64,000 nt of DNA from an uncultured archaeon (GTDB lineage Archaea > Hadarchaeota > Hadarchaeia > Hadarchaeales > WYZ-LMO6): assembly GCA_938074535.1 (NCBI GenBank), contig CALJER010000008.1:32001-96000 (forward strand). Direction: 5' to 3'. The notes below the pieces were generated by a model. That model was not told the origin of the DNA and did not search any database. It saw only the letters and a list, made by a program, of their open reading frames with translations. Positions 4,267 to 57,890 of this stretch are shown here, piece by piece. The translations under genes were made by a program, and so were the position numbers. The first letter of the stretch is position 1. Each line of letters begins with the position of its first letter.

Positions 4267-5013
4267 TTGGGGGTTCTGCTCGAAGAAGTGGTGACCTTCC
4301 CTCCCCCCCTAGAGCCCGTGTGGGGGGGCTTCCAGAAGCTCTCTTTGCTGGACTACCCCGCAAAGGTGGCCTCGGTGCTCTTCGTGAGGGGGTGCAACTT
4401 TCGATGCCCCTTCTGCTACAACACCGAGCTGGTCGGGGGACCGCCCGAAAAGGAGCTCCCCTGGAAGGAGATCCTGGGATACCTGAAGAAGAGGAAGGAG
4501 TGGCTGGACGGAGTGGTCATCACGGGTGGCGAACCCACCCTCTACTCGGGGCTTCCGGGGTACCTGAGGGAGCTGAAGGGGATGGGGCTGAGCGTGAAGC
4601 TCGACACCAACGGCTCCAACCCGGACATGCTGGGGGAGCTCCTGAGGGAGGGCCTGGTGGACTACGTGGCCATGGACGTGAAGGCGCCGCTGAGGGAGGA
4701 GGCGTACGCCAGGGCGGCGGGGGTGAAGGTCCGCCTGGAGGACGTGAGGAGGAGCCTCTCCCTTCTCCTCTCCTCCGGGGTGGAGTACGAGCTCAGGACC
4801 ACCGTGGTGCCTACCCTGCTCGGGGAGAAGGACCTCTTGGAGATAGCGGAGGAGATAAGGGGGGCCAGGAGGTACTACCTGCAGCAGTTCAGGCGCACCT
4901 CCACCCACGTGGACGAGCGCTTCTCCCAGATCCACCCCTACCCCAGGGAGTTCCTGGAGGAGGTCGCGAGGCGGATCTCGGGCTGCTTCGGTAAGTGCGG
5001 GGTGAGGGGATGA
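4267..5013 (+). CDS. nrdG: Anaerobic ribonucleoside-triphosphate reductase activating protein (radical SAM)
   Basis: GCNFRCPFCYN, GVVITGGEPT, KLDTNGS; directly upstream of nrdD. Confidence 0.93.
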   Translation: MGVLLEEVVTFPPPLEPVWGGFQKLSLLDYPAKVASVLFVRGCNFRCPFCYNTELVGGPPEKELPWKEILGYLKKRKEWLDGVVITGGEPTLYSGLPGYLRELKGMGLSVKLDTNGSNPDMLGELLREGLVDYVAMDVKAPLREEAYARAAGVKVRLEDVRRSLSLLLSSGVEYELRTTVVPTLLGEKDLLEIAEEIRGARRYYLQQFRRTSTHVDERFSQIHPYPREFLEEVARRISGCFGKCGVRG

Positions 5014-7082
5014 TCAAGAAGCTCAGGAAGAGGGACGGGACGCTGCAGGAGTTCGAGCCGGACAGGATAGGGGAGGCCATAAGGAAGGCGGCGGAGGCGC
5101 AGGGGCTCTTGGACTTCGAGGGGGAGGCGAGGAGGCTGCAGGGGCTGGTGGTGCGCAGGCTGGAGGAGAAGGGGTACGGGGAGGAGAGGCCCCCGGACGT
5201 GGAGGGGATACAGGACGAGGTGGAGGAAGTGCTGAGGGAGGAGGGCTACGGGACGCTGGCGGAGAGGTACCACGAGTACAGGAGGAGGCACGACGAGCTC
5301 AGGAGGAGCAGGAGCACGGTGTTCGACGTGGGGAAGATGGTGGAGGAGTTCATAGGGTACAGGGACTGGAGGGTGAGGGAGAACGCCAACCTCAGGCCTT
5401 CTATTTCTTCCATGATGTTCAACTCGGCGGGGGCGGTGAACGCCAGGTACCTCCTGGACAAGGTCTACCCGCCGGAGGTCAGCGACGCCCACACGGACGG
5501 GGACCTGCACCTCCACGACCTCTACCAGGGCGTCTGCGGGTACTGCTGCGGGCACTCGATGGAGGACATACTGACGAAGGGGCTGGTGAGCGTGGGGAAC
5601 AACCCCCACTCCAACCCTCCGAAGCACCTGGACGTGGCCCTGATGCAGGCGGTGAACTACATAGGGGTGATGACGCAGGAGTGGGCGGGGGCGCAGGCCT
5701 TCTCCTGGGTGGACGCCTATTTGGCGCCCTTCATCAGGGAGGACGGGCTGAGCTACAGGCAGCTCAAGCAGCTCCTCCAGATGTTCGTGTACAACCTGAA
5801 CGTGACCTCCAGGTGGGGTGGGCAGAGCCCCTTCTCCAACGTGACGCTGGCCTGCGGGGTGCCGGAGCCCCTGAGGGACAGGCCGGCGGTGGTGGGGGGG
5901 AGAACCCTGGACAGGACGTACGAGGAGTACGAGGAGGAAATAGAGATGTTCGACAAAGCCTTCCTCGAGGTGCTGCTCGAGGGGGACGCAGCGGGCAGGC
6001 CCTTCACCTTCCCCATTCCCACCTTCGCCATCACCGGGGACTTCCCCTGGGAGGACGGGCTCAGCAGCCTCCTCTTTGGGGTGGCGGCGAAGTACGGGCT
6101 GCCCTACTTCCAGAACTTCGTGAGGAGCGACCTGAGCCCCTGGCAGGTCTATTCCATGTGCTGCAGGCTCTCCCTGGACCTGAGGGAGCTGCAGAGGAAC
6201 GTGACGGGGGGGCTCTTCGGGTCCAGCCCGAAGACGGGGAGCGTGGGCGTGGTCACCATCAACCTCTCCAGGGCGGGGTACCTGGCGAAGGGGAGCGAGG
6301 AGGAGCTCTTCAGGAGGCTGAGGTACATGTGCATCCTGGCCGGGAGGGCGCTGGAGCACAAGAGGAGGATCGTGGAGAGGAACATCCAGGCGGGCCTCCT
6401 CCCGTACACGAAGGAGTACTTCGGGGACCTGAGCAGGCACTTCTCCACCATAGGGGTGGTGGGGGGGCACGAGATGTGCCTGAACATGGGGATAGAGGGG
6501 GGAATAGCGAGCAGGGAGGGGGCGGAGCTGTGCAGGAGGGTGCTGGAGTTCCTCAGGGGGGAGTGCAGGAGGCTGCAGGAGGAGACCGGGCACCTCTACA
6601 ACCTGGAGGCCACGCCGGCGGAGGGGGTGAGCTACAGGCTGGCAAGGCTGGACAGGAGGAAGTTCGGGGCCTCCATACGCACGAGCGGGGAGAGGGAGCC
6701 CTTCTACACCAACTCCACCCAGCTGCCGGTGGACTCCGACCTGGACCTGGTGGACGCGCTCAGGCACCAGGAGCCCCTCCAGACCCTGTACACGGGGGGA
6801 ACGGTGTTCCACATCTACCTGGGAGAGAGCCTGGAGGAGGGGGAGAGCTGCAGGAGCCTCATGAGGAAGGTCACCTCCAGGACCAGGCTGCCCTACTTCA
6901 CCCTCACGCCCACCTACTCCATATGCGGCGGCCACGGGCTGCTGAGGGGGGAGCAGCCCTCCTGCCCGGTGTGCGGGAGGGAGACGGACGTGTACTCCAG
7001 GGTGGTGGGGTACTACCGACCGGTCAAGAACTGGAACGCAGGGAAGCAGGAGGAGTTCAGGCTGAGGAGGAAATACAGCTGA
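5010..7082 (+). CDS. nrdD: Class III (anaerobic) ribonucleotide reductase with N-terminal ATP cone
   Basis: KRDG ATP cone, HLHDL, SMCCRL, EATPAEG, CxxH/CPVC zinc site, YSRVVGYYRP glycyl-radical loop. Confidence 0.96.
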   Translation: MIKKLRKRDGTLQEFEPDRIGEAIRKAAEAQGLLDFEGEARRLQGLVVRRLEEKGYGEERPPDVEGIQDEVEEVLREEGYGTLAERYHEYRRRHDELRRSRSTVFDVGKMVEEFIGYRDWRVRENANLRPSISSMMFNSAGAVNARYLLDKVYPPEVSDAHTDGDLHLHDLYQGVCGYCCGHSMEDILTKGLVSVGNNPHSNPPKHLDVALMQAVNYIGVMTQEWAGAQAFSWVDAYLAPFIREDGLSYRQLKQLLQMFVYNLNVTSRWGGQSPFSNVTLACGVPEPLRDRPAVVGGRTLDRTYEEYEEEIEMFDKAFLEVLLEGDAAGRPFTFPIPTFAITGDFPWEDGLSSLLFGVAAKYGLPYFQNFVRSDLSPWQVYSMCCRLSLDLRELQRNVTGGLFGSSPKTGSVGVVTINLSRAGYLAKGSEEELFRRLRYMCILAGRALEHKRRIVERNIQAGLLPYTKEYFGDLSRHFSTIGVVGGHEMCLNMGIEGGIASREGAELCRRVLEFLRGECRRLQEETGHLYNLEATPAEGVSYRLARLDRRKFGASIRTSGEREPFYTNSTQLPVDSDLDLVDALRHQEPLQTLYTGGTVFHIYLGESLEEGESCRSLMRKVTSRTRLPYFTLTPTYSICGGHGLLRGEQPSCPVCGRETDVYSRVVGYYRPVKNWNAGKQEEFRLRRKYS

Positions 7083-7200: not shown

Positions 7201-7950
7201 TCAGGGGGGTAGATACCCCAGTCTCCGGAGGAGTTCCCCCACCCCCAGCAGGGCCGGGGCATCCCCGCGCAGCTGGAAGATGGTTCGCCCCTCCCTGTCC
7301 AGCTCCTCCACCTCTTTGTCCTCCGGCACCCTCCCAAGGACTTCCATGCCTACAGGTACCTCCACCTCCTCCCCCCCCTTCATCCTGTTCAGAACCAGCC
7401 CCGCCCTCCTGTACTTCACCGCCCCCCTGTCCGCCACCCCCTTTATGGTGAAAGCCACTCCCAGCGACCTGGGAGAGGGGTCGGAGACCAGCAGTAGGTC
7501 ATCCACCTCCCTCATCACCCTCCGGTTGATCTGCTCCACCCCGGCCTCCCCGTCTATCACCACCACCTCGAAGCTCCTGGAGACCGAGGTGAGGATCTCC
7601 CTCAGCAGCTCGTTGACCCTGCAGTAGCATCCCTCCTCCTCGGGCCTCCCCATCGCCAGCAGCGAGAATCCCCTCCTCTCCTCCATCACCCCCAGCACCC
7701 CGTAGTCCAGGGAGAGGGCGAGCTCCTCCCGGCTCACCTTTCCCAGGGAGGAGATCCATTCCCTCCTCAGGTCCTCCACCGTCCTCCTCACCTCCACCCC
7801 CAGGGCCTGGGAGAGACCCGAGGAGGGATCCGCATCCACCGCGAGCACCCTCCTCCGGCCACCCTCCACCAGCAGCCGCAGGGAGGCTGAGGCCAGGAAG
7901 GTCTTCCCCACGCCCCCCTTCCCGCAGAAAACCATCACCCCTTCCCTCAC
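7201..7950 (-). CDS. cooC: CooC/AcsF-type nickel-insertion ATPase
   Basis: GKGGVGKT, VDADP, MGRPEEEGCYC.VN, IDGEAGVEQINR. Confidence 0.88.
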   Translation of the reverse strand: MREGVMVFCGKGGVGKTFLASASLRLLVEGGRRRVLAVDADPSSGLSQALGVEVRRTVEDLRREWISSLGKVSREELALSLDYGVLGVMEERRGFSLLAMGRPEEEGCYCRVNELLREILTSVSRSFEVVVIDGEAGVEQINRRVMREVDDLLLVSDPSPRSLGVAFTIKGVADRGAVKYRRAGLVLNRMKGGEEVEVPVGMEVLGRVPEDKEVEELDREGRTIFQLRGDAPALLGVGELLRRLGYLPP

Positions 7951-8657
7951 TTCTTCCCCTCCCTCAGCATCCTATCCCTTATCGCCCTGAGCTCCGCCAC
8001 GCTCCCGCACACCTCCCTGTAGTCGCATCTGTCGCAGTCCAGCGAAACCTCCTCCACCATCTTGCCCACGGCCCCCGCTATCTTCCTGGCCTTCTCCCCA
8101 AACCCCCAGAGGGCCCTCACGCCCTCCTCGCAGGTGGAGAAGACCACCTCCGCGGAAGACAAGGGGAAGCCGGAGCGCAGGGCCCTCAGGAGGGCCCCCC
8201 CCACCACGGAGAGGGAGAGGCCCCTCTCCACCGCCTCCCTGCTCACCCTGCTCCAGGCCTTCAGCTGGGAGGGCAGGCCCCTGACCATGTACCCCCTGAG
8301 CCCGATCCTGAGCGGAGCCAGGTTCAGCCTCCGGTACTCCTCATCCCTGACCTCCCTCGATTCCACCAGACAGAGCTGGGCGAAGGGGACCACGCCCCTC
8401 AGCCGCGGCAGGTCCTCCCCCCACAGGCTCACCCTCCCCTCCTCCACCAGCCCGGGAGTCTCGGTGAGGAGAACCGAGGAGAAGGAGGGGAGCTCCGGCG
8501 GACCGAGCTCCACCCACGTATCCTCCTTCAGAACCACGCCGGATTCCCCCAGGAAGCCGTCCGGGTCGAGGGGCGTGAGCCTCCTCACCCTCCCCCCGCT
8601 TTCTCCCCTTTTCAGAAGCTCCCGCAGGGACCTCAGGTCCTCATCGAAGAGCTTCAT
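7947..8657 (-). CDS. Truncated acetyl-CoA synthase beta (AcsB/CdhC middle-domain)-like protein with C-terminal CxxCx5C
   Basis: VLKEDTWVELG...EEGRVSLWGEDL and WSRVSREAVERGLSL resemble the ACS middle domain; ends CDRCDYREVC; only 236 aa. Confidence 0.6.
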   Translation of the reverse strand: MKLFDEDLRSLRELLKRGESGGRVRRLTPLDPDGFLGESGVVLKEDTWVELGPPELPSFSSVLLTETPGLVEEGRVSLWGEDLPRLRGVVPFAQLCLVESREVRDEEYRRLNLAPLRIGLRGYMVRGLPSQLKAWSRVSREAVERGLSLSVVGGALLRALRSGFPLSSAEVVFSTCEEGVRALWGFGEKARKIAGAVGKMVEEVSLDCDRCDYREVCGSVAELRAIRDRMLREGKK

Positions 8658-9426
8658 CCGCCCTCTCCCGCGCGAGCAGGCAGGCCCCGTAGGCCCCCGC
8701 CAGGATGGGGTCCAGCGGGAGCCTCCTCACCTTCCTCCCCAGTTGCTCCTCCAGGGCCCTCACGAAGCTCTCCAGCCTGCTCACCCCTCCGGCCACCACC
8801 ACCTCCCCCCTCATCCCCACCTTCCTCACGATGGAGGAGACCCTCCCCGCGATGGCCCTGGTGACGGCGGCCACGACGTCCTGCACCTCCTCCCCCTCGT
8901 TCAGGAGGGCCACCACCTCGCTCTCGGCGAAAACCGTGCACTGGGAGGTGATGGAGAGTTTCTTGGTGGAGCGAGACACCGCCTCGTCCCACTCCTCCAG
9001 CCCTATGCCCAGGGCTTCCCCCAGAAGCTCCAGGAACCTCCCCGCCCCGGCCGCGCACCTGTCGTTCGTCCCGTAGTCCACCACCCTTCCCCCCTCCATC
9101 ACCGCCACCCTGGTGGTGTTGGCCCCCACCTCCACCACCGTTCCGGCCTCGGGAACCAGGGAGCTGCACGCCCTGGAAAGGCAGAGAAGGACGGGTCTCT
9201 CCTCCCTGACGAAGTCCAGACCCCTCACCCTCTCCCCCGTCCCCACGCAGTAGGCCACCTCCTCCCACCTCCTCCCGGCACCCTCCAGCGCGAGGGCGAA
9301 GGCACGCTCCGCCGTCTCCCTGGCCCTCGGCCCGGTCTCCAGGACGGCGTGGCCCAGAAGGGAACCATCTTCCATGAGGAGGGCCTTCACCCTCCCGCTC
9401 CCCACGTCCAGTCCTCCCACCAGCAT
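8641..9426 (-). CDS. CoA-substrate enzyme activase, degenerate subunit (BcrD/BzdP/HgdC family)
   Basis: GLDVGS, NDRCAAGAGRFLE and CTVFAESE present; TGYGR and DIGGQD motifs degenerate. Confidence 0.82.
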   Translation of the reverse strand: MLVGGLDVGSGRVKALLMEDGSLLGHAVLETGPRARETAERAFALALEGAGRRWEEVAYCVGTGERVRGLDFVREERPVLLCLSRACSSLVPEAGTVVEVGANTTRVAVMEGGRVVDYGTNDRCAAGAGRFLELLGEALGIGLEEWDEAVSRSTKKLSITSQCTVFAESEVVALLNEGEEVQDVVAAVTRAIAGRVSSIVRKVGMRGEVVVAGGVSRLESFVRALEEQLGRKVRRLPLDPILAGAYGACLLARERADEALR

Positions 9427-10058
9427 CAGCTTCCCCCCACCTTCTGCCTGGCGAAGAGGGCCGCCCCGAGGGCCCCCACCAGCTGCGGGTCGAAGTCCAG
9501 CCTGAGGAGGGGGACCCCCAGCATCTCCTCCAGGTACCTCACCACCCCCACGTTCTTCGCCACCCCTCCGGAGAGGACCACCTCCCTCTCCACCCCCATC
9601 CTCGAGGCCAGCGCCTTCACCCTCGCCGCCATGGCCTGATTCACACCCGCCGCCACATCCTCGGCGCTGGCACCCTCAGCCAGCTGGGAGAGGACCTCCG
9701 ACTGGGCGTAGACCGCACACACGTTGGTGATGGGTATGGGCCTCCTGGAGGAAAGGGAGAGCCTTCCCAGCTCCTCCACTCCCACTCCCAGCGTCTTGGC
9801 CATCAGCTCCAGGAACCTCCCCGTTCCCGCCGCGCACTTGTCGTTCATGACGAAGTTCAGCAGCCTTCCCTCCCCGTCCACCCTTATCACCTTGCAGTCC
9901 TGCCCCCCTATGTCTATCACCGTCCTCACGGAGGGAAGGAGCCAGTGGGCACCCTTTCCGTGGCAGGAGATCTCCGACACGTTCTCCCCCGCGAAAGGAA
10001 TCCTCACCCTGCCGTAGCCCGTCCCCACGCAGTAGGCCACCTCCTCCCACCTCCTCCC
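9236..10058. repeat. 41-bp exact direct repeat shared by the two activase genes (9236-9276 and 10018-10058)
   Basis: cccgtccccacgcagtaggccacctcctcccacctcctccc occurs twice and encodes GRRWEEVAYCVGTG. Confidence 0.9.
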
Positions 10059-10208
10059 CGCCTTCCTCAGCGCCTCCTCCATCACCTCCCTGGCCGAGAG
10101 CTCCGGTCTGGGTTTGACCCTCCTCACCTCGTGGGAGAGGATGCGCCCGTCCTCCAGCAGGACGGCCTTGGCGGTGAGGGAGCCCACGTCGCAGCCTGCC
10201 ACCAGCAT
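9426..10208 (-). CDS. CoA-substrate enzyme activase (BcrA/BzdQ/HgdC family)
   Basis: GCDVGS, TGYGR, EISCHGKGA, DIGGQDCK, MNDKCAAGTGRFLE, CAVYAQSE, GGVAKN. Confidence 0.92.
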   Translation of the reverse strand: MLVAGCDVGSLTAKAVLLEDGRILSHEVRRVKPRPELSAREVMEEALRKAGRRWEEVAYCVGTGYGRVRIPFAGENVSEISCHGKGAHWLLPSVRTVIDIGGQDCKVIRVDGEGRLLNFVMNDKCAAGTGRFLELMAKTLGVGVEELGRLSLSSRRPIPITNVCAVYAQSEVLSQLAEGASAEDVAAGVNQAMAARVKALASRMGVEREVVLSGGVAKNVGVVRYLEEMLGVPLLRLDFDPQLVGALGAALFARQKVGGS

Positions 10209-10209
10209 G

Positions 10210-11577
10210 CTAGCCCAGTCCCATCGTTTCGTTGAACTCCAAAATCCTGCGCTTGATCTCCGAAACGGGGCTGACCCTGAAGTCCCAGGAGTCAGCCTCC
10301 AGCCTGAGGCAGGGCAGGCCCGTCTCCCTCTGGAGCGCCCTTATGAAGGCCTGGAAGCCCCCCCAAGTGTTCTTGCAGGCAGGATGGCCGGCGAACACGA
10401 AGCAGTCCCCTCCCCACTGCTCCACGCACCACACGTAGTCCTCCAGCCACTGGTCGGGCAGATCCACAGGCCCCCTCTGCTGCCTGGTCATGGGGTAGCT
10501 CCAGCACCTCTGCGCCAGCCCCTCCAGCATGGTGTCCAGGGAGGAGGTGTCGATGGGTTTCTCCGCGTGGAAGAGGGTGAGGACGTCCACCACGTAGCTC
10601 ATCCCGTTCTCCTCCAGCCAGAACCAGAGGTCCATGCTGGGGGGGTAGAAGCCCGTGTACACCCAGATCTGCCTGATGCGCTCCTCCGGCTTCGCTCCTT
10701 CCCCCTTCCTGAGCCTGTCCTTGGAGGCCTCCAGCACGGCCTCGAAGACCCTGGTCCCCTGCGGGGTCCCCACCGAGCTGAACTTCACGCCCTGGAGGAA
10801 GATGTTGAAGGAGGAGTGGACGGGGTTGGGGCGGGCCCTCTTCAGGTCATTTATCTCCAGGTAATACTTCCTGCACTTCTCGCTCTCCTCCACCACCTCC
10901 CTCAGCCTCTCCTCCTCCAGTTTCTTCCCGGCGAACTCCTCCAGCCTCCTCACCTGGTGCCTGTACTCCTTCGTGTAGTAGTCGAAGGCCCTCTCCCCGT
11001 GGTAGGTGGGACAGTCTATCCCCAAATAGGGAACACCCAGGCGGACCGCCATGTACTCGTAGAGCTTGGAGTTGGCGTCGCAGCTTCCTGGGGCGGCGGT
11101 AACCACCAGATCCGGGCGCAGGCCCAAGCCCTTCAGGATGGCCCCGCAGGCTGCCCTCTGGGAGGTGCACATGGTCTCGAGCAGTCCCTCCTCCACGCTC
11201 CAGTCGAAGTAGACGTGGGGATCCTCGAGGAAAATGGTGGCGAAGGAGGTGAGGACCTCCGGCACCAGCGGGACGAGGTCCAAAGCGTAAAAGACCTCCG
11301 GGGCGGTGTTGAAGCTGGAGAGCACCACCTTCTTTCCCTCCTCCCTCGCCCCCCTCAGCATCCCGAGATACCAGGCCGCCCACCTAGAGACCTCCAGGGC
11401 CACCCTCCGGATGGCGGGGTCGGAGAGGAAGAGATGCCTCAGGACCTCGGCCTGGGAGGGAACGGCCGCCACCAGGTCCTCCATTTCCCTCTCCGTAACG
11501 TCCTCGGGGATGGAGGAAGCCGTGGAAAGAAGGATGAAGAGCCTCTCCTCGAGCGGCAGCTGCCTAGCCTCTTCCAC
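10210..11577 (-). CDS. 2-hydroxyacyl-CoA dehydratase / benzoyl-CoA reductase subunit (HgdA/BcrB-like)
   Basis: APEVFYALDL..PE, MCTSQR, SCD..SK, HPACK, LRLEADSWD..R. Confidence 0.85.
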   Translation of the reverse strand: MEEARQLPLEERLFILLSTASSIPEDVTEREMEDLVAAVPSQAEVLRHLFLSDPAIRRVALEVSRWAAWYLGMLRGAREEGKKVVLSSFNTAPEVFYALDLVPLVPEVLTSFATIFLEDPHVYFDWSVEEGLLETMCTSQRAACGAILKGLGLRPDLVVTAAPGSCDANSKLYEYMAVRLGVPYLGIDCPTYHGERAFDYYTKEYRHQVRRLEEFAGKKLEEERLREVVEESEKCRKYYLEINDLKRARPNPVHSSFNIFLQGVKFSSVGTPQGTRVFEAVLEASKDRLRKGEGAKPEERIRQIWVYTGFYPPSMDLWFWLEENGMSYVVDVLTLFHAEKPIDTSSLDTMLEGLAQRCWSYPMTRQQRGPVDLPDQWLEDYVWCVEQWGGDCFVFAGHPACKNTWGGFQAFIRALQRETGLPCLRLEADSWDFRVSPVSEIKRRILEFNETMGLG

Positions 11578-11899
11578 CAGCCTCCCTCCTCTCGGCCAGC
11601 CTCCTCAGCTCCCTCTCCTCCAGCCTCGGGCGGAGGTAAATCGCGTACCCACCCTGGGTCTTCTCCACCATGAGCTTCCATCCGCCCTTCTCCCCCTCCT
11701 CCCTCTCCGACTGTCCTCTCACCACCCTGTCCAGCATCTCCTCCATCCCCTCCAACAGCTCCCTGGGAAGTCTGGACCTGAAGTCGGGGCAGATCCTGGT
11801 GCTGGCGGGGTTCTCCTCGCTCCCCTTCAGCTGACACCTTATCCTCTCCCACTCCATCCACGCGGCCCAGAAGCAGTCACCGCACCTAACGGGGCTCAT
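11564..11899 (-). CDS. Small hypothetical protein with CxxC-x12-C-x14-C motif
   Basis: ATG at 11899 overlaps the upstream stop (ATGA); 111 aa; overlaps the downstream start. Confidence 0.65.
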   Translation of the reverse strand: MSPVRCGDCFWAAWMEWERIRCQLKGSEENPASTRICPDFRSRLPRELLEGMEEMLDRVVRGQSEREEGEKGGWKLMVEKTQGGYAIYLRPRLEERELRRLAERREAGGRG

Positions 11900-13029
11900 C
11901 TCCCCAGCCTCTCCAGGAAGGCCTGGATTCTGGTCCTGATCCTCCCCACCTCCGCCAGCGGGCCGTACTGCCTCTCCAGGAGCAGAGTGGGCACCCCCTC
12001 CTCCTCCAGCCTCCTGGCGAAGAGGGTGTTGTCTCCTCCATGCGTGTCGCAGAACTTCATGTGCTCCAGGACCACTCCTTCCACCCTCCATTCTTTGATG
12101 AGCCTCCTCAAAAAGTTGAGCTTCCTCTCGAACTCCCCATAGGTCCTGGCGCAGGGTACGTGGTAGTAGTACCTCCTCACCAGGGCCTCAAAGGGGTCCC
12201 CCCCCTCTTCCACCATGTCCACGATGGACCTCATGCCGAAGCAGAGGGAGTCCGTGACCACCAGGCCCCCCTGCCCCTCTATCACCCTCACCAGCTCCGG
12301 ATCGTCGTTCACGCTCCCCACGAGCATCAGCCTGGTTCCGGAGTACTCCTTTCCCCTCTCCTCCACTTCCTCCAGCGCTTCCTCCAGCAGGCGGTTGTAG
12401 ACCTCCCTTCTCACAGCCGTGCTCGCCACGTGGAGGGCCAGGGCCTCCTGCCCGGAAACAGGGGGTCTCTCCCTCTTTCTCCTTTCGTTGAGCTCCAGGA
12501 GGAGCCTCCTCCCCCTGTTGTACTCCCTGATGGCCTCCTCCAGCTTTTCGGGAGAGAGCTCCGTCCCGAAGTGCCCCTCCATGGCCTTCAAAAGGGAGAA
12601 GATCTCGCCCCGGTAGAACTCCAGCCCGTGCTCCGTGAGGGTGTGGGGGATCCCAAAGTAGTAGAAGAAGGGGGGGAGGTTCCCCGCCGCCTTCCAGCAG
12701 TCGTACATCCTCCTCACATGATCGCAGGTGCGGGAGATCACGGCCCCATCCAGGAAGTCGTACCTTCCCTCCAGCACCAGCTGCAGGCAGCAGCGCGTGT
12801 AGCTGCAGTTGACGGGACCGTACCAGGCGTCCGCCAGGGAGGTTCCTGAGCAACCCGTCCCCCTGATCCTGAAGGGAAGCATGCCCAGGGCGTGGACGAG
12901 CTCTTCCGGGAAGTAGCTGCAGGTGTAGCCCACGACCCTCCCTCCTCCCCTCTTCCACTCTTCCAGCAGGGGATTGGAGATCCCCGAGGAGACCCGCTCC
13001 AGGGCTTCTAGACTTCCCACTTCAAACAT
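11896..13029 (-). CDS. 2-hydroxyacyl-CoA dehydratase / benzoyl-CoA reductase subunit (HgdB/BcrC-like)
   Basis: GYTCSYFPEELVHALG, NCSYTR, TCDHVRR, KFCDTHG, RTRIQAFLE. Confidence 0.88.
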   Translation of the reverse strand: MFEVGSLEALERVSSGISNPLLEEWKRGGGRVVGYTCSYFPEELVHALGMLPFRIRGTGCSGTSLADAWYGPVNCSYTRCCLQLVLEGRYDFLDGAVISRTCDHVRRMYDCWKAAGNLPPFFYYFGIPHTLTEHGLEFYRGEIFSLLKAMEGHFGTELSPEKLEEAIREYNRGRRLLLELNERRKRERPPVSGQEALALHVASTAVRREVYNRLLEEALEEVEERGKEYSGTRLMLVGSVNDDPELVRVIEGQGGLVVTDSLCFGMRSIVDMVEEGGDPFEALVRRYYYHVPCARTYGEFERKLNFLRRLIKEWRVEGVVLEHMKFCDTHGGDNTLFARRLEEEGVPTLLLERQYGPLAEVGRIRTRIQAFLERLGR

Positions 13030-13078
13030 GGTTCTTGCGGGCATAAATCTTTTTTTTTGAAGGGGCCAAGAAAAACCG

Positions 13079-14275
13079 ATGGGAGATAAGAAGGTGGTGG
13101 TCCTGGGAGGGGGCGGGGTGGTGGGAAGAACCGCCGTGAAGGACCTGGCCAAGAGCGGGGTCTTCTCGGAGGTGGTGGTGGCCGACAAGGAGGTGGAGAA
13201 GGCGAGGGAGCACCTGGAGGGAGTTCCCCGCCTCTCCTTCGTGAAGGCAGACCTCACGGAGTTGTCCATCCTCAGGGAGGTGATAAAGGGGGCGGACGTG
13301 GTTCTGAACACCGTAGGACCCTTTTACAAGTTCGGCCCCTTGCTCACGAGGGAGGCCATACGGACCGGGGTGAACTACGTGGACATCTGCGACGACTACG
13401 AGGCCACGCTGGAGCAGCTGAAGATGGACGAGGAGGCGAGGAAGAGGGGTGTGACCGTCCTCACGGGCATGGGCTCTTCACCCGGCGTGGCCAACGTGGT
13501 GGCCAAGTTCTGCTCCCAGTTGCTGGACCAGCCGGAGGAGATCCACATCTACCACATCCACGGGGGGGAGCCGGAAGAGGGGCCCGGGGTGATCTACCAC
13601 CGCATCCACTACATGACGGGAAAAATCCCCATGCTGAAGGATGGGAAGATGGTGTACTTCGGGTTCTTCAGTGAGGAAGGGAGAAGGGAAATAGAGGAAG
13701 TGGACTTCTACGAGCCCATAGGGGTGGCGAAGGTTTACCCCTACCCGCACCCGGAGACCATCACCCTCCCCAGGTACATCCCGGGCCTCAGGAAGGTCAC
13801 CAACAAAGGGTCCGTCCTACCCCTGGAATACTACGAACTGCTGCGGGAGGCCGTGAAGATGGGTTTAGCCGATGAGAAGCCCCTGAAGGTGGGAGGGGCC
13901 TCCGTGGCCCCCATCGACTTCCTGGTCTCCTTCGTCCTCTCCAAGAGGAAGGAATATGCGAGCAGGCTGCCTGAACCCGTGGGTTGCCTGAAGATCGTGG
14001 TGAGGGGGAGAAAGGGGGGAAAGAGGATGGAGTACAGGTTCGCCATCCCCTCCAGGGGTGCGGGTATGGGGGAGGGAACGGCCATTCCCGCCTCGGTGGG
14101 CACGCAGATGGTGGCCAGAGGGGAGATCGAGGAGAAAGGGGTCCTCCCCCCGGAGGCCTGCGTGGATCCCATGAAATTCTTCGAGGAGGCGAGGAGCAGG
14201 GAGGGGATGGGCGGCGTCAGGATCATCTTCGAGAGCGTGGACGAGGAGGGGAGGGTGACCAGCATACCCCTTTGA
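13079..14275 (+). CDS. Saccharopine dehydrogenase family oxidoreductase
   Basis: VLGGGGVVG Rossmann motif, NTVGPFY, YVDICDD, GMGSSPG..N, HPETITLP, GVLPPE. Confidence 0.85.
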   Translation: MGDKKVVVLGGGGVVGRTAVKDLAKSGVFSEVVVADKEVEKAREHLEGVPRLSFVKADLTELSILREVIKGADVVLNTVGPFYKFGPLLTREAIRTGVNYVDICDDYEATLEQLKMDEEARKRGVTVLTGMGSSPGVANVVAKFCSQLLDQPEEIHIYHIHGGEPEEGPGVIYHRIHYMTGKIPMLKDGKMVYFGFFSEEGRREIEEVDFYEPIGVAKVYPYPHPETITLPRYIPGLRKVTNKGSVLPLEYYELLREAVKMGLADEKPLKVGGASVAPIDFLVSFVLSKRKEYASRLPEPVGCLKIVVRGRKGGKRMEYRFAIPSRGAGMGEGTAIPASVGTQMVARGEIEEKGVLPPEACVDPMKFFEEARSREGMGGVRIIFESVDEEGRVTSIPL

Positions 14276-14312
14276 CCCAAGCCTTTTTTTCCTCCAGAAA
14301 ACCACTCTTTTG

Positions 14313-15611
14313 ATGTTCAAGTGGAGGGAAAAGGAGTACGAGGAGCTTGAGGCTCAGCCCGAGGCCCTCCCCGAGGGGGTGGATCCCGAGGAATACGTCA
14401 TCGCCACCTACTTCCTCTCCCTCCCCTCCGCCCTGGATCCCTGGGAGGTGGCTAGGGCCCTGGCCATAGAGCAGAGCACGGGAACCTGGGTGCCCGTTCC
14501 CGGGGAGACCCCCGAGGTGAGGAAGAAGCACGTGGCCAAAGTGGTGGGACTGTACGAGGCCCCCTATCCGGAAGTCCTCTCCCCCACGGAGGCCAGGGAG
14601 AGGAACTATGTGGTGCAAATCGCCTTCCCGCAGGTGAATTTCGGGAAACAGATCCCCATGCTCCTCTCCACGGTGGCGGGGAACCTGATGTGCTGGGAGA
14701 AGATCAAGCTCCTGGACCTCCGCTTCCCCAAGAGCTTCGTGGAGGGCTTCGGGGGCCCCAAGTTCGGGATAGAGGGGATAAGGAAGCTGCTGGGAGTGGA
14801 GGAGAGGCCCCTGATCAACAACATGATCAAGCCCTGCACCGGCTTTACACCCGACGTGGGTGCGAGGCTGGCCTACGAAGCGGCGGTAGGGGGAGTGGAC
14901 ATGATCAAGGACGACGAGCTACTGGGCAACCCCTCCTTTAACCCCATAGAGGAGAGGGTGCCGAAGTACATGGAGGCTCTGGACAGGGCGAACAGGGAAA
15001 AGGGGGAAAAGACCCTCTACACGGTCAACATCACGGACGAGGCCTCCAGGGTGATGGAGAACGCGGACAGGGCCATAGAGCTTGGGGCGAACGCCCTCAT
15101 GATCAACTATCTCACCGCCGGAATCTCCCTGCTCAGGGAGCTGGCGGAGGATCCAAGCATCAACGTCCCCATCCTGGCCCACATGGACTTCTCCGGCACC
15201 ATGTACGTCTCCCCCTACTCAGGCCTCTCCTCCTCGCTCCTGCTGGGGAAGCTGCCCAGGCTGGCGGGTGCCGACATCTTGGTCTACCCAGCACCCTACG
15301 GGAAGGCCCCCTTCATGAAGGAGAGATACGTGAGGATAGCCCACCACCTGACCTTTCCCCTCTACCACCTCCGCCCCACCTTCCCCATGCCCAGCGGGGG
15401 GATCACGCCCTCCATGGTGCCCGAGGTGGTGGGGGATCTGGGGAAGGACATCGTGATAGGGACGGGGGGAGGGATCCACGCCCACCCCATGGGTCCCAGG
15501 GCCGGAGCCAGGGCCTTCAGGCTGGCGGTGGAGGCGGTGATGAGGGGGATGAGCCTGCAGGAGATGGCCAAGGAGCACGAGGAGCTGAGGGTGGCCCTGC
15601 AGATGGGCTGA
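14313..15611 (+). CDS. RuBisCO-like protein (form IV)
   Basis: AIEQSTGTW, GPKFG, IKDDE, SGG, GGGIHAHP present; K177-, R295- and H327-equivalent residues replaced (IKPCTG, AHMD, LVYPAPYGK). Confidence 0.9.
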   Translation: MFKWREKEYEELEAQPEALPEGVDPEEYVIATYFLSLPSALDPWEVARALAIEQSTGTWVPVPGETPEVRKKHVAKVVGLYEAPYPEVLSPTEARERNYVVQIAFPQVNFGKQIPMLLSTVAGNLMCWEKIKLLDLRFPKSFVEGFGGPKFGIEGIRKLLGVEERPLINNMIKPCTGFTPDVGARLAYEAAVGGVDMIKDDELLGNPSFNPIEERVPKYMEALDRANREKGEKTLYTVNITDEASRVMENADRAIELGANALMINYLTAGISLLRELAEDPSINVPILAHMDFSGTMYVSPYSGLSSSLLLGKLPRLAGADILVYPAPYGKAPFMKERYVRIAHHLTFPLYHLRPTFPMPSGGITPSMVPEVVGDLGKDIVIGTGGGIHAHPMGPRAGARAFRLAVEAVMRGMSLQEMAKEHEELRVALQMG

Positions 15612-15620
15612 GGGGGTTCC

Positions 15621-17120
15621 TTGGGGTACATCCTGGCCCACGACCTGGGGACGGAGCTCAACAAGGCCGCCCTGGTGGACGAGGAAGGGAGGATAGTCGC
15701 CTACTGTACCCAGGAGTACCCCGTCTCCTATCCCAGGCCGGGGTGGGCGGAGCAGGATCCGGAGCTCTGGTGGGAGGCCGTCAGGGAAACCACGAAAAAG
15801 GTGCTGGAGCTGGCGGGGATCAAACCGGGAGAGGTGGAGGCGCTGGTCTTCGACAGCATGATGTACACGCTGGTGGCGGTGGACCGGGGAGGAAGACCGC
15901 TCAGGCCGGCCATCCTCTGGCTCGACACCAGGGCGAAGGCCCAGGCGGAGGAGCTGATGGGAAGCCTGGACCTGCTGGGGATGCTGGAGAGGGGGGTGAT
16001 CCCGCCCACCTCGGCCAAGGACATCACCCCGAAGATCCTGTGGGTGAAGCAGGAGGAGCCGCACGTTTTCGAGAAGGCCTGCTTCATCGACAGCAAGGAC
16101 TACCTGGTCCACCGGTGCGTGGGGGAGTTCTACACCGACTGGAGCTGCGCCAGCCTCTTCTGCCTCTTCAACTTCAGGGAGAAGAGGTGGGAGGAGGAGC
16201 TGGTGGAGGAAATGGGCCTTTCCCTGGAAAGGCTCTCCAGGCCCGTGAAGAGCACGGAGGTGGTGGGGAACCTCACGGAGGAAGCCTCCAGGGAGCTTGG
16301 ACTGCCCAGGAAGGTGGAGGTGGTGTGCGGGTCCGGGGACGCCACCGCGGTGGCGGTGGGAGCGGGGGGACCCCACCTGTACGTGGGGACCTCGGCCTGG
16401 ATAGGTGCCCACGTGGAGGAGCCCCTCTTCGACCTGACCGGCGTGGGCAGCATCTGCTCCGCCGATCCCTCCAGGTTCTTCCTGATAGGGGAGATGGAGA
16501 ACGCCGGGGCCTGCCTGAAGTGGTTCAGGGAGACCCTGGCCAGGGAGGAGAAGGAAAGGGCGGAGAAGGAGGGAAAAGGCCCCTACCAGCTGCTGGACGA
16601 GCTGGCCTCCGGTGCGGAGGCCGGGTCGGGGAAGCTCCTCTTCCTCCCCTGGATGATGGGGGAGAGGTGCCCCTTCACCCAGTCCACCGCCAGGGGGGCC
16701 TTCCTGAACCTCACCTTCGGGCACACCAAAGGGCACCTGGTGAGGGCGGTGCTGGAAGGGGTGGCCTACCACATGAGGTGGATCCTGGAGGTGGTGGAAG
16801 GGATGGGGCTCTCCCTCCCCTCCATCAGGGCCTGCGGCGGAGGGGCTAAGAGCGGGGTCTGGCTCCAGATCTTCGCCGACGTGATGGGGAGGAAGGTGGA
16901 GAGGGTCTCCTCCCCGCACCACGTGGGCTCGCTGGGAGCCGCCACCCTTGCCAGGGTAGGTCTGGGAAAGACGGACTTTTCCTCGGCGGAGAGGTCCGTG
17001 AAGGTGGAGGGGGAGTTCCTCCCCTCGGAGGAAAACCGGGACATCTACGACAGGATGTACGAGGAGTTCAGGGGGATGCAGGGGAGGCTGTCGGAGGTCT
17101 TCGAGCGCCTCAACACCTAG
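15621..17120 (+). CDS. FGGY-family carbohydrate kinase (xylulokinase-like)
   Basis: AHDLGT, GWAEQDP, ILWLDTRA, FLPWMMGERCP, RAVLEGVA, GGGAKS. Confidence 0.92.
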   Translation: MGYILAHDLGTELNKAALVDEEGRIVAYCTQEYPVSYPRPGWAEQDPELWWEAVRETTKKVLELAGIKPGEVEALVFDSMMYTLVAVDRGGRPLRPAILWLDTRAKAQAEELMGSLDLLGMLERGVIPPTSAKDITPKILWVKQEEPHVFEKACFIDSKDYLVHRCVGEFYTDWSCASLFCLFNFREKRWEEELVEEMGLSLERLSRPVKSTEVVGNLTEEASRELGLPRKVEVVCGSGDATAVAVGAGGPHLYVGTSAWIGAHVEEPLFDLTGVGSICSADPSRFFLIGEMENAGACLKWFRETLAREEKERAEKEGKGPYQLLDELASGAEAGSGKLLFLPWMMGERCPFTQSTARGAFLNLTFGHTKGHLVRAVLEGVAYHMRWILEVVEGMGLSLPSIRACGGGAKSGVWLQIFADVMGRKVERVSSPHHVGSLGAATLARVGLGKTDFSSAERSVKVEGEFLPSEENRDIYDRMYEEFRGMQGRLSEVFERLNT

Positions 17121-47776: not shown

Positions 47777-48918
47777 CCCTCACCCCCAAGAATGAAAACC
47801 CAGTTCTTCTGGGCACACATCCCGAACTGGCCGTGAGCCAGGGCCCTTCGCACACCCGGAATCTGGTACTCACCCGCCTCGCCCCTTATTTGCTTGGCGG
47901 CCTCCACCATCCTCACCAGGCCCGTCGCGCAAACCGGATCGGCCGCGAGAGCCCCACCGCTGGGGTTAACGGGGATTTCACCGCCCTTCTCCGTTGCCCC
48001 CCTCTCCAAGAGGACCTTGCCCTTGCCCCTCCTGCAGAGGCCCAGGGCCTCGTATATCATCAGCTCCTCGTGGGCAAATTTTTCCGAAACTTCGAAGACG
48101 TCAAGCTCCGCGTAGGGATCCCTTATCCCCGCCATCTCATAGGCATCCTTTGCCGCCTTACGCAGGGAATCAAGCTCGAGGAGGTTCCTGTCACGGAGGT
48201 AGAAGTCCTGGCAGACGCCTACCCCCTCTATCCAGACGGGAGTGTCGGTGATCTCCTTTGCCTTTTCTTCCGAGGCCAGAACCAGGGCACAGGCGCCGTC
48301 GCTGATGGGGGACATCATCAACTCCCTTATGGGATGGTAATAAAGTTTGGAGCCGAGCACCTCCTCCACAGTCAGGTCCGGCATCCTCCTCTGGGCAAAG
48401 GGGTTCTTCGCGGCATTCGAGAGATTCTTGACGGAAACCATCGCGATTTCCTCTTCGGAGACTCCGTAGGAGGACATGTACATCCTAGCTTGGATAGCAG
48501 CGGCTGAAACATCGTTGAGAACTCCTATCTGCCTGTCAAAGAGGGGATCCAAAGTGTAGAAGGATACTTGGTGTGGGTTGAAGGTCGACCCCTGAGTGTG
48601 GGCCTCCACCAGAGCTACGTCATGTACACCGGAGAGAATCCTCATGAAAGCGTACCAAGCCGCGGAGGTACCATCTTCCTCTGTTTTCGATTCGTCCTTC
48701 AGGTAGGCCCCCACCGCCATGCTGAGAAAAACGCTTGAAATGGTCCTGCCGTCCAGAAAGTCCGTGGAGGCCGTGACCACGGTATCCACCTCCCCGCGCG
48801 TGATTCCCGCGTGCGAGAGGGCCTCTTTGACAACCTCAAAAACCATGTCCTCCCTGGTCTTTTGCATATCGAACTGATGTTGGGTCTGAGCGTAGCCCAC
48901 TATGGCGACTCTCCTCAA
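47773..48918 (-). CDS. SCP2-type thiolase-fold protein, Ltp4-like (no catalytic Cys)
   Basis: VAIVGYAQ, STDFLDGR.IS, ESKTEEDG, PISDGA, NPSGGALAADP, CAQKN. Confidence 0.8.
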   Translation of the reverse strand: MRRVAIVGYAQTQHQFDMQKTREDMVFEVVKEALSHAGITRGEVDTVVTASTDFLDGRTISSVFLSMAVGAYLKDESKTEEDGTSAAWYAFMRILSGVHDVALVEAHTQGSTFNPHQVSFYTLDPLFDRQIGVLNDVSAAAIQARMYMSSYGVSEEEIAMVSVKNLSNAAKNPFAQRRMPDLTVEEVLGSKLYYHPIRELMMSPISDGACALVLASEEKAKEITDTPVWIEGVGVCQDFYLRDRNLLELDSLRKAAKDAYEMAGIRDPYAELDVFEVSEKFAHEELMIYEALGLCRRGKGKVLLERGATEKGGEIPVNPSGGALAADPVCATGLVRMVEAAKQIRGEAGEYQIPGVRRALAHGQFGMCAQKNWVFILGGEG

Positions 48919-48922
48919 AGGC

Positions 48923-49399
48923 TCACCTCGAGGGTTTGAAGTATTCTATGTCCGCCAGCTCGCCTCTGGTTGCCTCTCTCCATTTCGGCTCCACTTCCAT
49001 TCCCTCCCTCACCCCCTCGGGGTCTATCTCTCCAATCGGCATGAAGATCGTGGAATCGGCTCCTTCCAGCTTTATGGCCCCTATCACCCTTGGTTTTTCC
49101 AGGTCCACAAAATTCCCCTCCCCATCCAGCCCAACATAGGCCGTGGTGTAACCGACCAGAACCCCCCTTCCGGAAAGCTCTACCAAGTTTTTCTCCCCAA
49201 GCTTGGTCAAGCATTTTCCACACCTCGACCTGGGCGGCACGTAGGTGTACCCACAGCTGGGGCACTTCGCCCCCAGAAGTTTCTTTTCGGCGAGTGACTT
49301 TATGAATCTCTCCATCAGAAAGCCCGTGGACCACTTGAACCGTGCAACGAAAGGCAGACCCTTTACTCGAACTATCCCTTCCCTCTCCAAATGCAACAA
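48923..49399 (-). CDS. DUF35 zinc-ribbon/OB-fold protein
   Basis: CPSC..TYVPPR..CGKC; GMEVEPKW. Confidence 0.88.
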   Translation of the reverse strand: MLHLEREGIVRVKGLPFVARFKWSTGFLMERFIKSLAEKKLLGAKCPSCGYTYVPPRSRCGKCLTKLGEKNLVELSGRGVLVGYTTAYVGLDGEGNFVDLEKPRVIGAIKLEGADSTIFMPIGEIDPEGVREGMEVEPKWREATRGELADIEYFKPSR

Positions 49400-49487
49400 A
49401 AAAAGTCGCCTAACCCCTTTAATAAGCCTTTCGGAAGCCGGCGGTCCAAGAGCTATTTAAGCCCCAACACGGAGAGCTGTTTGGGGA

Positions 49488-51497: not shown

Positions 51498-51504
51498 ATA
51501 CTGC

Positions 51505-52728: not shown

Positions 52729-52741
52729 AAGCATCACCCGT

Positions 52742-53662
52742 TCATTTGCTGGACGGTCGGGGCAGGCTGAAAAAGAAAGTCCCTTCCCTTTTCACCACCT
52801 TTACCCTTCTTTCATTCTGCAGTTTAACGAGGTGGGCCAGGACAGAATTGTATGTAAAATACGGAAATCCCCCCTCCGGATAGACCGAGTTGACGAGCTC
52901 CGAAAGGTCTTTCTCACCCTCCCCCAGAATTTCCAGCAACTTTTGTTCCGTCCTGAATTTTTGCTGAAGGATCCCGTCTATTCTCTTGTGGACCTCCCCC
53001 ACCTCCCCACCATGTGAAAGAAAGGCCTTGTCTATCCTCAGCTTTTTTAGACGCTGGAGCGATTCCAAGAATTCCTCCAGGCTGCCCTGTAGGCACCCTA
53101 CGAAGGGCGTCCCCCTGACCGTGATCATGTCCCCGGCGAATATGGTGCGGCTCTCCCCTTCGTAAAGACAAATGTGCCCCGGTGCATGACCGGGCGTGTG
53201 AAGAACTTTTAGGGAGAGGTCAGCCGCTCCAATGGAGTCTCCTTCCCTCAATCTCATGTCGACCTTTGCCGTCTTCACTTTCTCGTAAATGGAAGCTCGC
53301 ATTCTGGCATGATCCGCGATTATGCCAGGCATCTCGCTCAGCACTTCCTCTGGTGGGAGCTGTTTTTTCATGTCCTCTATCAAAGGCGCGGCTACTTCAT
53401 GCGCCGCTATCTTAACCCCGGCTCTCTCCTTTATGGAGGCGTTCCCACCGAAATGGTCGATATGCTCATGGGTGTTCACGATCATGGAGACGTCGCTCAA
53501 ATCGAACCCTATTTCCTCCAATTGAGAGGAGAGTTCTCCCACCGATTCCTCATATCCGCTGTCTATCAAAACCGGCGTTTCGCTCTCTACTAAGAAGGCA
53601 TTTACCCTCTGCAGACCCGGGAAGCTTGGCTCGAGCGATATCGTGTGTACGCGCAGCCCCAT
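52742..53662 (-). CDS. MBL-fold metallo-hydrolase with C-terminal winged helix
   Basis: THEHIDHFGG, TPGHAPGH, AGD, SHG. Confidence 0.9.
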   Translation of the reverse strand: MGLRVHTISLEPSFPGLQRVNAFLVESETPVLIDSGYEESVGELSSQLEEIGFDLSDVSMIVNTHEHIDHFGGNASIKERAGVKIAAHEVAAPLIEDMKKQLPPEEVLSEMPGIIADHARMRASIYEKVKTAKVDMRLREGDSIGAADLSLKVLHTPGHAPGHICLYEGESRTIFAGDMITVRGTPFVGCLQGSLEEFLESLQRLKKLRIDKAFLSHGGEVGEVHKRIDGILQQKFRTEQKLLEILGEGEKDLSELVNSVYPEGGFPYFTYNSVLAHLVKLQNERRVKVVKREGTFFFSLPRPSSK

Positions 53663-53718
53663 CTCGGACTCACCACTTTTCTTCTCACCGCTACTTAAAT
53701 TTGCGGACAGGATCGGGA

Positions 53719-53734
53719 AGAAAAGCTTTTTATA
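53719..53734 (+). promoter_or_regulatory. BRE-TATA promoter
   Basis: AGAAAAGCTTTTTATA about 21 bp upstream of GTG 53755. Confidence 0.6.
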
Positions 53735-53754
53735 CTGCGGGGCCCGGGAAAAAT

Positions 53755-57147: not shown

Positions 57148-57148
57148 C

Positions 57149-57886: not shown

Positions 57887-57890
57887 TCCC

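Follow-up and report, generated by a model that had tools for sequence, protein, structure and literature searches.

A predicted Bzd-like ATP-driven reductase operon in a Hadarchaeales genome, probably equipped with a dedicated CooC and acetyl-CoA synthase-domain accessory pair

Class I benzoyl-CoA reductases (BCRs) and double-cubane proteins run some of the lowest-potential reductions in biology, and only a handful of them have been characterised. We know of no class I BCR or double-cubane protein that needs a dedicated metallochaperone. Here we describe an operon of seven genes in a 64,000-nucleotide stretch of DNA (the window, positions 32001-96000 of contig C8) from a genome of 1.2 Mb and 93.6% completeness, whose close relatives carry the label Candidatus Hadarchaeales. 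The operon, at 7201-13029 on the minus strand of the window, probably encodes an ATP-driven low-potential reductase resembling the Bzd-type BCR, together with a dedicated accessory pair for metal or cluster delivery, which consists of a CooC-type ATPase and a small protein related to acetyl-CoA synthase (ACS), called mini-ACS below. It is very likely that the core is a BCR-like ATP-driven redox enzyme, and the chances are about even that the accessory pair serves to deliver a metal or cluster and not to take part in catalysis. An initial annotation made from the letters of the window had proposed an uncharacterised ATP-driven reductase or dehydratase with a metal accessory module; this proposal is supported by the analyses below, with nickel and an acyl-CoA substrate remaining its conjectural parts.

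The small subunit, encoded by the first gene of the operon (BzdN-like, or HgdB-like), has BzdN as its best solved relative (8s02_B, E 1.5e-51), with residues 23-376 colinear with residues 21-374 of BzdN, followed by HadC (1.4e-36), MbdN (5.7e-30) and the double-cubane cluster protein DCCP (about 7e-29). According to the BzdNO report, BzdN holds an [8Fe-9S] double cubane via Cys36, Cys73, Cys100, Cys263, Cys293 and Cys327 (PMC11971306). All six ligands are present in the archaeal protein, in which C37, C75, C102, C263, C293 and C327 align with them in the 8s02_B alignment, and the conserved spacing is C37-x37-C75-x26-C102-x160-C263-x29-C293-x33-C327. Among 27 family members from metagenome loci, C37 was conserved in 78% and each of the other five cysteines in 100%, and a seventh cysteine of the family is located at position 80 or 81. 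The BzdN-like subunit is predicted from these ligands to hold an [8Fe-9S] double-cubane cluster.

The catalytic subunit (BzdO/HadB-like, or HgdA-like) is divergent. As a single sequence, it matched the solved structures of DCCP (E 9e-9), HadB (3e-7) and BzdO (1e-4), and a profile of 42 sequences searched against the PDB gave 1.3e-22, 2.3e-21 and 1e-20 for the same three proteins, so that the subunit is about equally distant from all of them. In BzdO, according to the same report, Cys95, Cys128 and Cys380 are the ligands of an aqua-[4Fe-4S] cluster, Glu65 is the catalytic acid, and His131 adjoins the cluster-bound water (PMC11971306). In the profile alignment, E107, C137, C166 and C401 of the archaeal protein correspond to Glu65, Cys95, Cys128 and Cys380, and the position of His131 is taken by Asn169, with Asp167 nearby; E107, C137, C166, D167, N169 and C401 are invariant in the 42 sequences. 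This subunit is predicted to bind a [4Fe-4S] cluster through three cysteines, leaving an iron site open. Two to three tandem HgdA-like copies were observed behind one BzdN-like gene in loci L049, L054, L051, L052 and L067, which suggests that such copies are exchangeable substrate-specific subunits.

Two different BcrAD-type ATPases follow. ATPase 1 passes the cut-off of TIGR00241 (270 bits, cut-off 125) and does not reach that of bzdQ (221 bits, cut-off 380); it keeps the DIGGQD motif and the cluster cysteines C125 and C164. ATPase 2 is 45% identical to ATPase 1 and scores 111 bits against the same bzdQ cut-off. The initial annotation had described it as a degenerate activase, which is correct for the phosphate-2 motif, where DIGGQD is replaced by EVGANTT in this genome, but not for the cluster site, since both cluster cysteines are retained within NDRCAAG and SQCTVF. 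The NDxCAAG and xQC/NVC cysteines are common to the two proteins, and across the family the second ATPase copy is the less conserved one.

To place the subunits, we used the curated cut-offs of hidden Markov models, among them the Bzd equivalog models TIGR03190, TIGR03191 and TIGR03192, together with E-values against the PDB. Every subunit stayed below the curated equivalog cut-offs of the BCR, dehydratase and DCCP models. The small subunit scored 172 bits with BzdN (cut-off 454), 177 with the double-cubane model NF040772 (350), 149 with HadC (700) and 121 with BcrC (421). The catalytic subunit scored at most 50 bits on every model, with 50 of 350 for NF040772, 43 of 750 for HadB and 25.5 of 449 for bzdO, and its scores with the Bzd and Bcr models were 25-31 bits against cut-offs of 449-487. 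For both HGD-D subunits, NF040772 was the top NCBIfam match. The four-part plan combined with scores below the cut-offs therefore indicates a BzdNOPQ-like layout that lies outside every characterised family, in agreement with the uncharacterised enzyme proposed by the initial annotation.

These comparisons bear on two readings that would assign the operon to a known reaction. The first is a genuine reductase of benzoyl-CoA or a substituted aryl-CoA for anaerobic aromatic degradation, with mini-ACS and CooC as co-transcribed helpers. In its favour are BzdN as the top solved match of the small subunit, the complete [8Fe-9S] ligand set, the equivalents of BzdO Cys95, Cys128, Cys380 and Glu65, and the heterodimeric ATPase. 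We nevertheless consider this reading improbable, because the Bzd and Bcr equivalog scores fall far below their cut-offs, above all in the catalytic subunit, because an invariant Asn replaces His131 of BzdO, because some loci hold two or three tandem catalytic paralogues, and because the operon includes no dienoyl-CoA hydratase or ring-cleavage gene, an absence that the initial annotation had pointed out for the whole window. The second reading is a 2-hydroxyacyl-CoA dehydratase of the Had/Hgd/Fld type, whose ATPases would be merely catalytic activators, and to this we give little credence. Both large subunits do belong to Pfam HGD-D, HadC is the second-best solved match of the small subunit, HadB is among the best solved matches of the catalytic subunit, and the mini-ACS is commonest in Bacillota among its few taxon-labelled members, with one in a Tepidibacter isolate. 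However, the printed alignment shows no cysteine of HadC opposite C263, whereas this family conserves all six ligands of the double cubane, the operon has two distinct ATPase genes in place of one activator gene, and the HadB and HadC scores (43 of 750 and 149 of 700 bits) are far from their cut-offs.

Profile and structure comparisons showed the mini-ACS to be a genuine family. A word-based search retrieved just 7 near-identical clusters, and a profile search of 1.84 billion representatives retrieved 562 at E<=1e-3, 363 at E<=1e-10 and 67 at E<=1e-30, with identities down to 23%. Most of the best 150 relatives are 220-280 aa long (about 240), and about 14 shorter ones look like fragments. C208, C211 and C217 alone are invariant in 66 mini-ACS sequences, and the corresponding CxxCx5C motif is present in 155 of 160 stored relatives, the five exceptions being short fragments. 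With the 66 diverse sequences, AlphaFold gave a model with a predicted local distance difference test score (pLDDT) of 94 and a predicted template modelling score of 0.90; with 7 close homologues alone the pLDDT was 31.6. A Foldseek search with the model returned 23 matches at E<=0.001, and all those shown were ACS/CdhC chains (best 5e-12, next E 0.49). Comparison of the model with 48,161 chains by VIA-align gave Z 19.9 for 3git_A (residues 318-504; 177 residues, root-mean-square deviation 4.0) and Z 19.6 for 7nyp_A (321-531), and the next value was 3.8.

At the sequence level, the mini-ACS profile aligns to residues 330-498 of Moorella ACS (E 5e-18), and the mini-ACS is 28% identical over 158 residues to the 488-aa CdhC encoded elsewhere in the same genome. 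Its C208, C211 and C217 align to a CxxCx8C motif after the CdhC domain of that protein, and the mini-ACS ends 19 residues past C217. A Pfam scan did not find the C-terminal domain PF19436 (ACS_CODH_B_C) in the mini-ACS; the CdhC of the genome has it at 9.6e-80. Because the three cysteines align, the protein ends there and PF19436 is absent, the mini-ACS is the middle (A2) domain of ACS/CdhC with a three-Cys remnant of the A-cluster cubane motif. In ACS, the middle domain binds CoA, and a complete A-cluster domain includes a fourth cubane Cys and a Cys-Gly-Cys nickel site. A separate scan of genome contigs with a narrow mini-ACS profile yielded in full two close relatives and two bacterial contigs, one of them labelled Bacteroidetes, that match only the C-terminal Cys-motif helix at about 40% identity over 32-35 residues (L011:3110-3214 and L012:179-289).

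The CooC encoded next to the mini-ACS has CooC1 as its best solved relative (3kje, E 2.2e-16), with the CYC motifs aligned. Its GKGGVGKT deviant Walker A motif and C108-x-C110 are invariant in 60 CooC sequences, and in CooC1 the deviant Walker A motif is described as the nucleotide site and the CxC as a Zn/Ni site at the dimer interface (PMC6006190). The earlier statement that the window has no carbon monoxide dehydrogenase (CODH) or full ACS is true of the window but not of the genome, in which contig C14 (L103:2997-13211) carries a complete CODH/ACS operon, cdhA-B-C-D-E, where D and E are two CdhD-family genes, alongside genes for a RACo-type activator and another CooC. The two CooC proteins are 40% identical. 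Since the cdh operon has its own CooC, the CooC of the BCR-like operon is an extra copy that is not needed for CODH/ACS.

We modelled the complex of two CooC chains with one mini-ACS. Its score was 0.62 (individual runs 0.56-0.67), and the highest score of three controls was 0.00. In a calibration on single-chain pairs with other alignments, this mark was attained by 116 of the 157 solved complexes and by 2 of the 215 mismatched pairs. The runs had at least 65% of their contacts in common, and the pLDDT of the partner was at least 81. The confident interface joins CooC residues 33-34, 68-96 and 122-127 with mini-ACS residues 40-45, 54 and 109-135. Among the residues involved are D82 of CooC, which is invariant, and W135 of the mini-ACS, which is invariant in the 14- and 20-sequence alignments and outside the list of positions conserved at >=90% in the 66-sequence alignment. 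The modelling supports binding of CooC to the mini-ACS through the middle domain.

The gene neighbourhoods connect this pair with the reductase. A metagenome scan with a 20-sequence subset chosen by motif found 172 mini-ACS relatives, of which 80 loci, spanning 40-68% GC, were kept and compared with the window proteins by tblastn. Seventy loci extend 600 bp or more beyond the mini-ACS gene on its downstream side, and all of these except L072 (69 of 70) have a CooC gene on the same strand no more than 500 bp away. Of the 69 loci that extend 600 bp or more in the upstream direction, 55 have an ATPase gene no more than 400 bp from the mini-ACS gene, and in the majority of the remaining 14 the mini-ACS is preceded by an HGD-D or inserted gene. 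Where at least 4.8 kb upstream was available (30 loci), an HgdA-like gene was found in 28 and an HgdB-like gene in 27, with exceptions L027, L029 and L075. The genes typically run HgdB-like, HgdA-like (one to three tandem copies), ATPase, ATPase, mini-ACS, CooC, and no CODH gene was found adjacent to the mini-ACS among the metagenome loci examined. The survey of neighbourhoods that the initial annotation had suggested as a check thus shows that the mini-ACS/CooC pair co-occurs with the reductase genes.

This linkage also helps to judge whether mini-ACS and CooC could be unrelated to the reductase, as a decayed cdhC/cooC duplicate that serves, or once served, CODH/ACS. The identities of 28% to the CdhC of the genome (158 residues) and of 40% to the cdh-linked CooC agree with such an origin, as do the 3 of 30 loci in which the pair occurs with no complete upstream HGD-D set. 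Yet the family is ancient and diverse, with 363 representatives at E<=1e-10 and identities down to 23%, and the three cysteines are invariant; the mini-ACS nearly always lies directly after the ATPase and HGD-D genes on the same strand and is translationally coupled in this operon; and the cdh operon has its own CooC. A decayed duplicate is therefore highly improbable.

Taxon-labelled mini-ACS members come from Hadarchaeales, one Actinomycetota metagenome-assembled genome and the isolate Tepidibacter sp. Z1-5, and the Atlas clusters are annotated as commonest in Bacillota on few records. As the word-based search gave 11 proteins and the cluster look-ups few names, the taxonomic range rests on sparse labels. 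Within Hadarchaeales, the HgdA-like gene was present in 5 of 65 genomes, namely 4 of the 5 genomes of this genus and genome G045, whose contig stops directly after the two HGD-D genes. This patchy occurrence is compatible with horizontal acquisition.

Recurrent neighbours provide clues to the substrate. In 19 loci (e.g. L084:3602-4888), the gene immediately before the BzdN-like gene encodes a helical-repeat protein of about 430-495 aa that has no Pfam match at 1e-5 and no counterpart in the Hadarchaeales operon; this gene often follows one for a GMC oxidoreductase or two for acyl-CoA dehydrogenases. Other genes recurring in the 80 loci encode a 4Fe-4S protein (10 loci), GMC oxidoreductase (8), AMP-dependent ligase (7), paired acyl-CoA dehydrogenases (6) and enoyl-CoA hydratase (2). 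The genome itself carries at least 7 AMP-ligase, about 8 acyl-CoA dehydrogenase and 3 enoyl-CoA hydratase genes. Because acyl-CoA genes flank some of the loci and the genome is rich in them, the evidence favours a CoA thioester as the substrate.

From these data we infer the following electron path and maturation role. A heterodimer of the canonical and the degenerate-motif BcrAD-type ATPases would hold a bridging [4Fe-4S] cluster, and ATP hydrolysis would push electrons into the [8Fe-9S] double cubane of the BzdN-like subunit. The electrons would then pass to the three-Cys, open-site [4Fe-4S] cluster of the BzdO-like catalytic subunit, in which the Glu is kept and the His is replaced by Asn, and a substrate, most likely a CoA thioester, would be reduced at this cluster. 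The mini-ACS and CooC would form a nucleotide-driven device that delivers a metal or cluster to this reductase for maturation or repair. Nickel as the metal is a doubtful proposition. A bolder version, which we think unlikely, holds that the catalytic or electron-transfer site of the BCR-like enzyme needs a metal, most obviously nickel, or a special cluster beyond the general Fe-S machinery, delivered by a CooC that is recruited via a free-standing ACS middle domain. If true, this would be the first case of nickel or CooC dependence in the BCR/dehydratase radical-enzyme superfamily, and the middle domain of genuine ACS would be a docking platform for AcsF/CooC.

Several observations weigh against a reductase with a dedicated delivery pair. 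The confident contacts of the modelled complex include neither the CxC of CooC nor the CxxCx5C of the mini-ACS, and three invariant cysteines are insufficient to rebuild an A-cluster. The set of genes is incomplete in 3 of the 30 upstream-rich loci, two of which have no upstream HGD-D gene and one of which lacks only the HgdB-like gene. BzdNO produced in E. coli was crystallised with its [8Fe-9S] cluster (PMC11971306), so that a dedicated maturase is not needed for the double cubane itself; a maturase for that cluster was considered as a candidate and is weakened by this result. In addition, the slightly best solved profile match of the catalytic subunit is DCCP, which acts on small molecules (PMC7317905), and the window neighbours of the operon (saccharopine-dehydrogenase-like, RuBisCO, FGGY kinase and NrdD genes) have no link to acyl-CoA metabolism.

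The last two points would also fit a DCCP-like enzyme that reduces a small non-CoA molecule, in which the mini-ACS would be a permanent fifth subunit handling the substrate (e.g. CoA or a C1 ligand) and CooC would load its metal site. The profile value of 1.3e-22 for DCCP, NF040772 as the top model for both HGD-D subunits and the retention of the whole ACS middle domain in the mini-ACS are in line with this reading. It is improbable all the same: DCCP is a homodimer served by a homodimeric ATP-dependent reductase (PMC7317905), whereas two different HGD-D and two different ATPase genes are present here, several loci have genes for acyl-CoA dehydrogenases and CoA ligases beside the module, and the Ni-binding part of ACS is absent from the mini-ACS. 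A Bzd-like reductase with a delivery pair is accordingly the reading that we retain.

The coordinates of the operon are listed in Table 1. All seven open reading frames are present at the positions claimed earlier, and their order and their overlapping or abutting arrangement were borne out by the reading frames, the Pfam matches and the junctions. They match the coding pattern of the genome, with a G+C content of 0.84-0.90 at third codon positions against 0.42-0.50 at second positions. The HgdB-like gene and the Cys4 gene overlap as ATGA, mini-ACS and CooC as GTGA, and ATPase 1 and ATPase 2 as TGATG, and the seven genes are translationally coupled. The A/T-rich box AAAAAAAAAGATTTAT may serve the operon as an archaeal TATA element; an alternative in-frame ATG start of the BzdN-like gene is located at 13044.

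Table 1. Genes of the reductase operon and its candidate promoter element in the window
Feature	Position	Strand	Basis
BzdN-like electron-transfer subunit, 377 aa	11896..13029	-	Pfam HGD-D 2.5e-91
Small Cys4 protein, 111 aa	11564..11899	-	Without Pfam or NCBIfam match
Divergent BzdO/HadB-like catalytic subunit, 455 aa	10210..11577	-	Pfam HGD-D 1.3e-53
BcrAD/BzdQ-type ATPase 1, 260 aa	9426..10208	-	PF01869 BcrAD_BadFG 2.5e-62
BcrAD-type ATPase 2, divergent, 261 aa	8641..9426	-	PF01869 BcrAD_BadFG 1.2e-40
Mini-ACS, 236 aa	7947..8657	-	PF03598 CdhC 1.2e-5 (25.6 bits, cut-off 24)
CooC/AcsF-type P-loop ATPase, 249 aa	7201..7950	-	CbiA P-loop 9.6e-14
A/T-rich box AAAAAAAAAGATTTAT, candidate TATA element	13043..13058	-	Read from sequence; 14 nt upstream of the 13029 ATG

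Between the two HGD-D genes lies the small Cys4 protein, with cysteines C6, C9, C22 and C37, whose ATG overlaps the upstream stop codon. It has no match in Pfam or NCBIfam and was not detected in the 80 metagenome loci; among 5.8 billion proteins its relatives form just 4 clusters, 67-100% identical, and the sole named match is a Hadarchaeales metagenome-assembled genome. Three other genomes of the genus encode it at 70-85% identity with all four cysteines kept. Its translational coupling and the conservation of its four cysteines show that the reading frame is a real gene, and its distribution identifies it as a lineage-specific addition. The earlier claim that it is part of the operon thus stands as far as the gene is real and coupled, but only within this genus; a role as a general component of the system was rejected on account of this restriction.

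Two further genomes of the genus (L009 and L010) carry all seven genes with order and neighbours (RuBisCO, saccharopine-dehydrogenase-like and NrdD genes) unchanged, and shorter loci from three other genus genomes, two of which are the sources of L009 and L010, agree. The genome has no HGD-D genes besides the two of the operon. It does encode a third BcrAD_BadFG ATPase domain (210.9 bits), at C4:3235-3996 inside a 572-aa open frame, for which no HGD-D partner exists outside the operon.

The surroundings in the window are archaeal, including archease, aEF-1alpha, Thi4, a form III-like RuBisCO and an anaerobic NrdD. On the plus strand at 13079-17120, saccharopine-dehydrogenase-like, form III-type RuBisCO large-subunit and FGGY sugar kinase genes run divergently from the operon, starting 49 bp from its start, and the first two stay beside the operon across the genus. 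The NrdD of the window (4995-7082) is matched by that of a genus relative (L009:9568-14184) as three segments covering residues 1-184, 182-389 and 389-695, and the gaps between them of about 1.2-1.3 kb each have the size expected for two inteins; the copies in the window and in L010 are uninterrupted. Further away, the region 48000-62000 of the window has a G+C content of 0.52-0.55 against 0.60-0.68 elsewhere and carries two acyl-CoA dehydrogenase and two AMP-dependent ligase genes, and it may be a separately acquired island.

The operon defines a large and taxonomically broad but unstudied branch, with hundreds of mini-ACS representatives in bacteria and in one Hadarchaeales lineage, in which a catalytic subunit with a distinct active site (Asn for His) is usually accompanied by a CooC/ACS-domain pair. 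It would extend the metabolism inferred for Hadarchaeales by an ATP-driven reductase, and it makes accessible the questions of what CooC-type ATPases do outside CODH/ACS and how CooC/AcsF recognise their clients. Since a family member occurs in the cultured Tepidibacter sp. Z1-5, genetics and biochemistry are feasible.

A full-text literature search, with subscription journals and supplements outside its scope, found no paper that ties CooC/AcsF or a CdhC-like protein to BCR, dehydratase or DCCP genes, and a preprint on CODH gene context (10.1101/2025.09.14.676152) makes no mention of benzoyl-CoA, dehydratase, activase, BcrAD or HgdC. Among known systems, the class I BCR of the Bzd type (BzdNOPQ; 8S02, 8S1T and 8S2R) is similar in its small HGD-D subunit with six [8Fe-9S] cysteines, its larger HGD-D catalytic subunit with three cluster cysteines and the Glu65 equivalent, and its two different BcrAD ATPases with bridging-cluster cysteines. 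It differs in that the catalytic subunit described here is remote (profile E 1e-20; equivalog scores of at most 31 bits) and has an invariant Asn for His131, that the downstream genes of the benzoyl-CoA pathway are missing, and that the mini-ACS and CooC are added, as is the genus-specific Cys4 gene between the HGD-D genes.

With DCCP and its reductase DCCP-R (6ENO), the operon shares the HGD-D fold, a multi-Cys set fit for an [8Fe-9S] cluster and an ATP-dependent reductase partner of the BcrAD type. DCCP and DCCP-R are single-gene homodimers, in contrast to the two unlike HGD-D and two unlike ATPase genes here, and the second Cys of the 7-Cys motif given in the DCCP report, CX19CX18-19CX29CX166-170CX32-34CX32C (PMC7317905), has no conserved counterpart in the BzdN-like family. 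The dehydratase HadBC (3O3M) is likewise a two-subunit HGD-D heterodimer with a three-Cys [4Fe-4S] cluster in its catalytic subunit, the latter according to the BzdNO report (PMC11971306). In the printed alignment, however, HadC has no Cys at the equivalent of C263, which is needed for the second cubane, and dehydratases such as HadBC/HadI use a single activator gene, whereas two distinct ATPase genes are found here.

For the accessory pair, the comparison is with the CODH/ACS system. Unlike ACS (AcsB/CdhC), the mini-ACS lacks the PF19436 domain, the rest of the A-cluster site and the bacterial N-terminal domain, but it shares the middle-domain fold and a CxxC...C motif aligned to the CdhC of the genome. 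The conserved neighbours of the operon CooC are the mini-ACS and the BCR-like reductase, not CODH or ACS as for CooC1/AcsF, with which it nevertheless shares the GKGGVGKT motif and an invariant CxC aligned to the metal site of CooC1.

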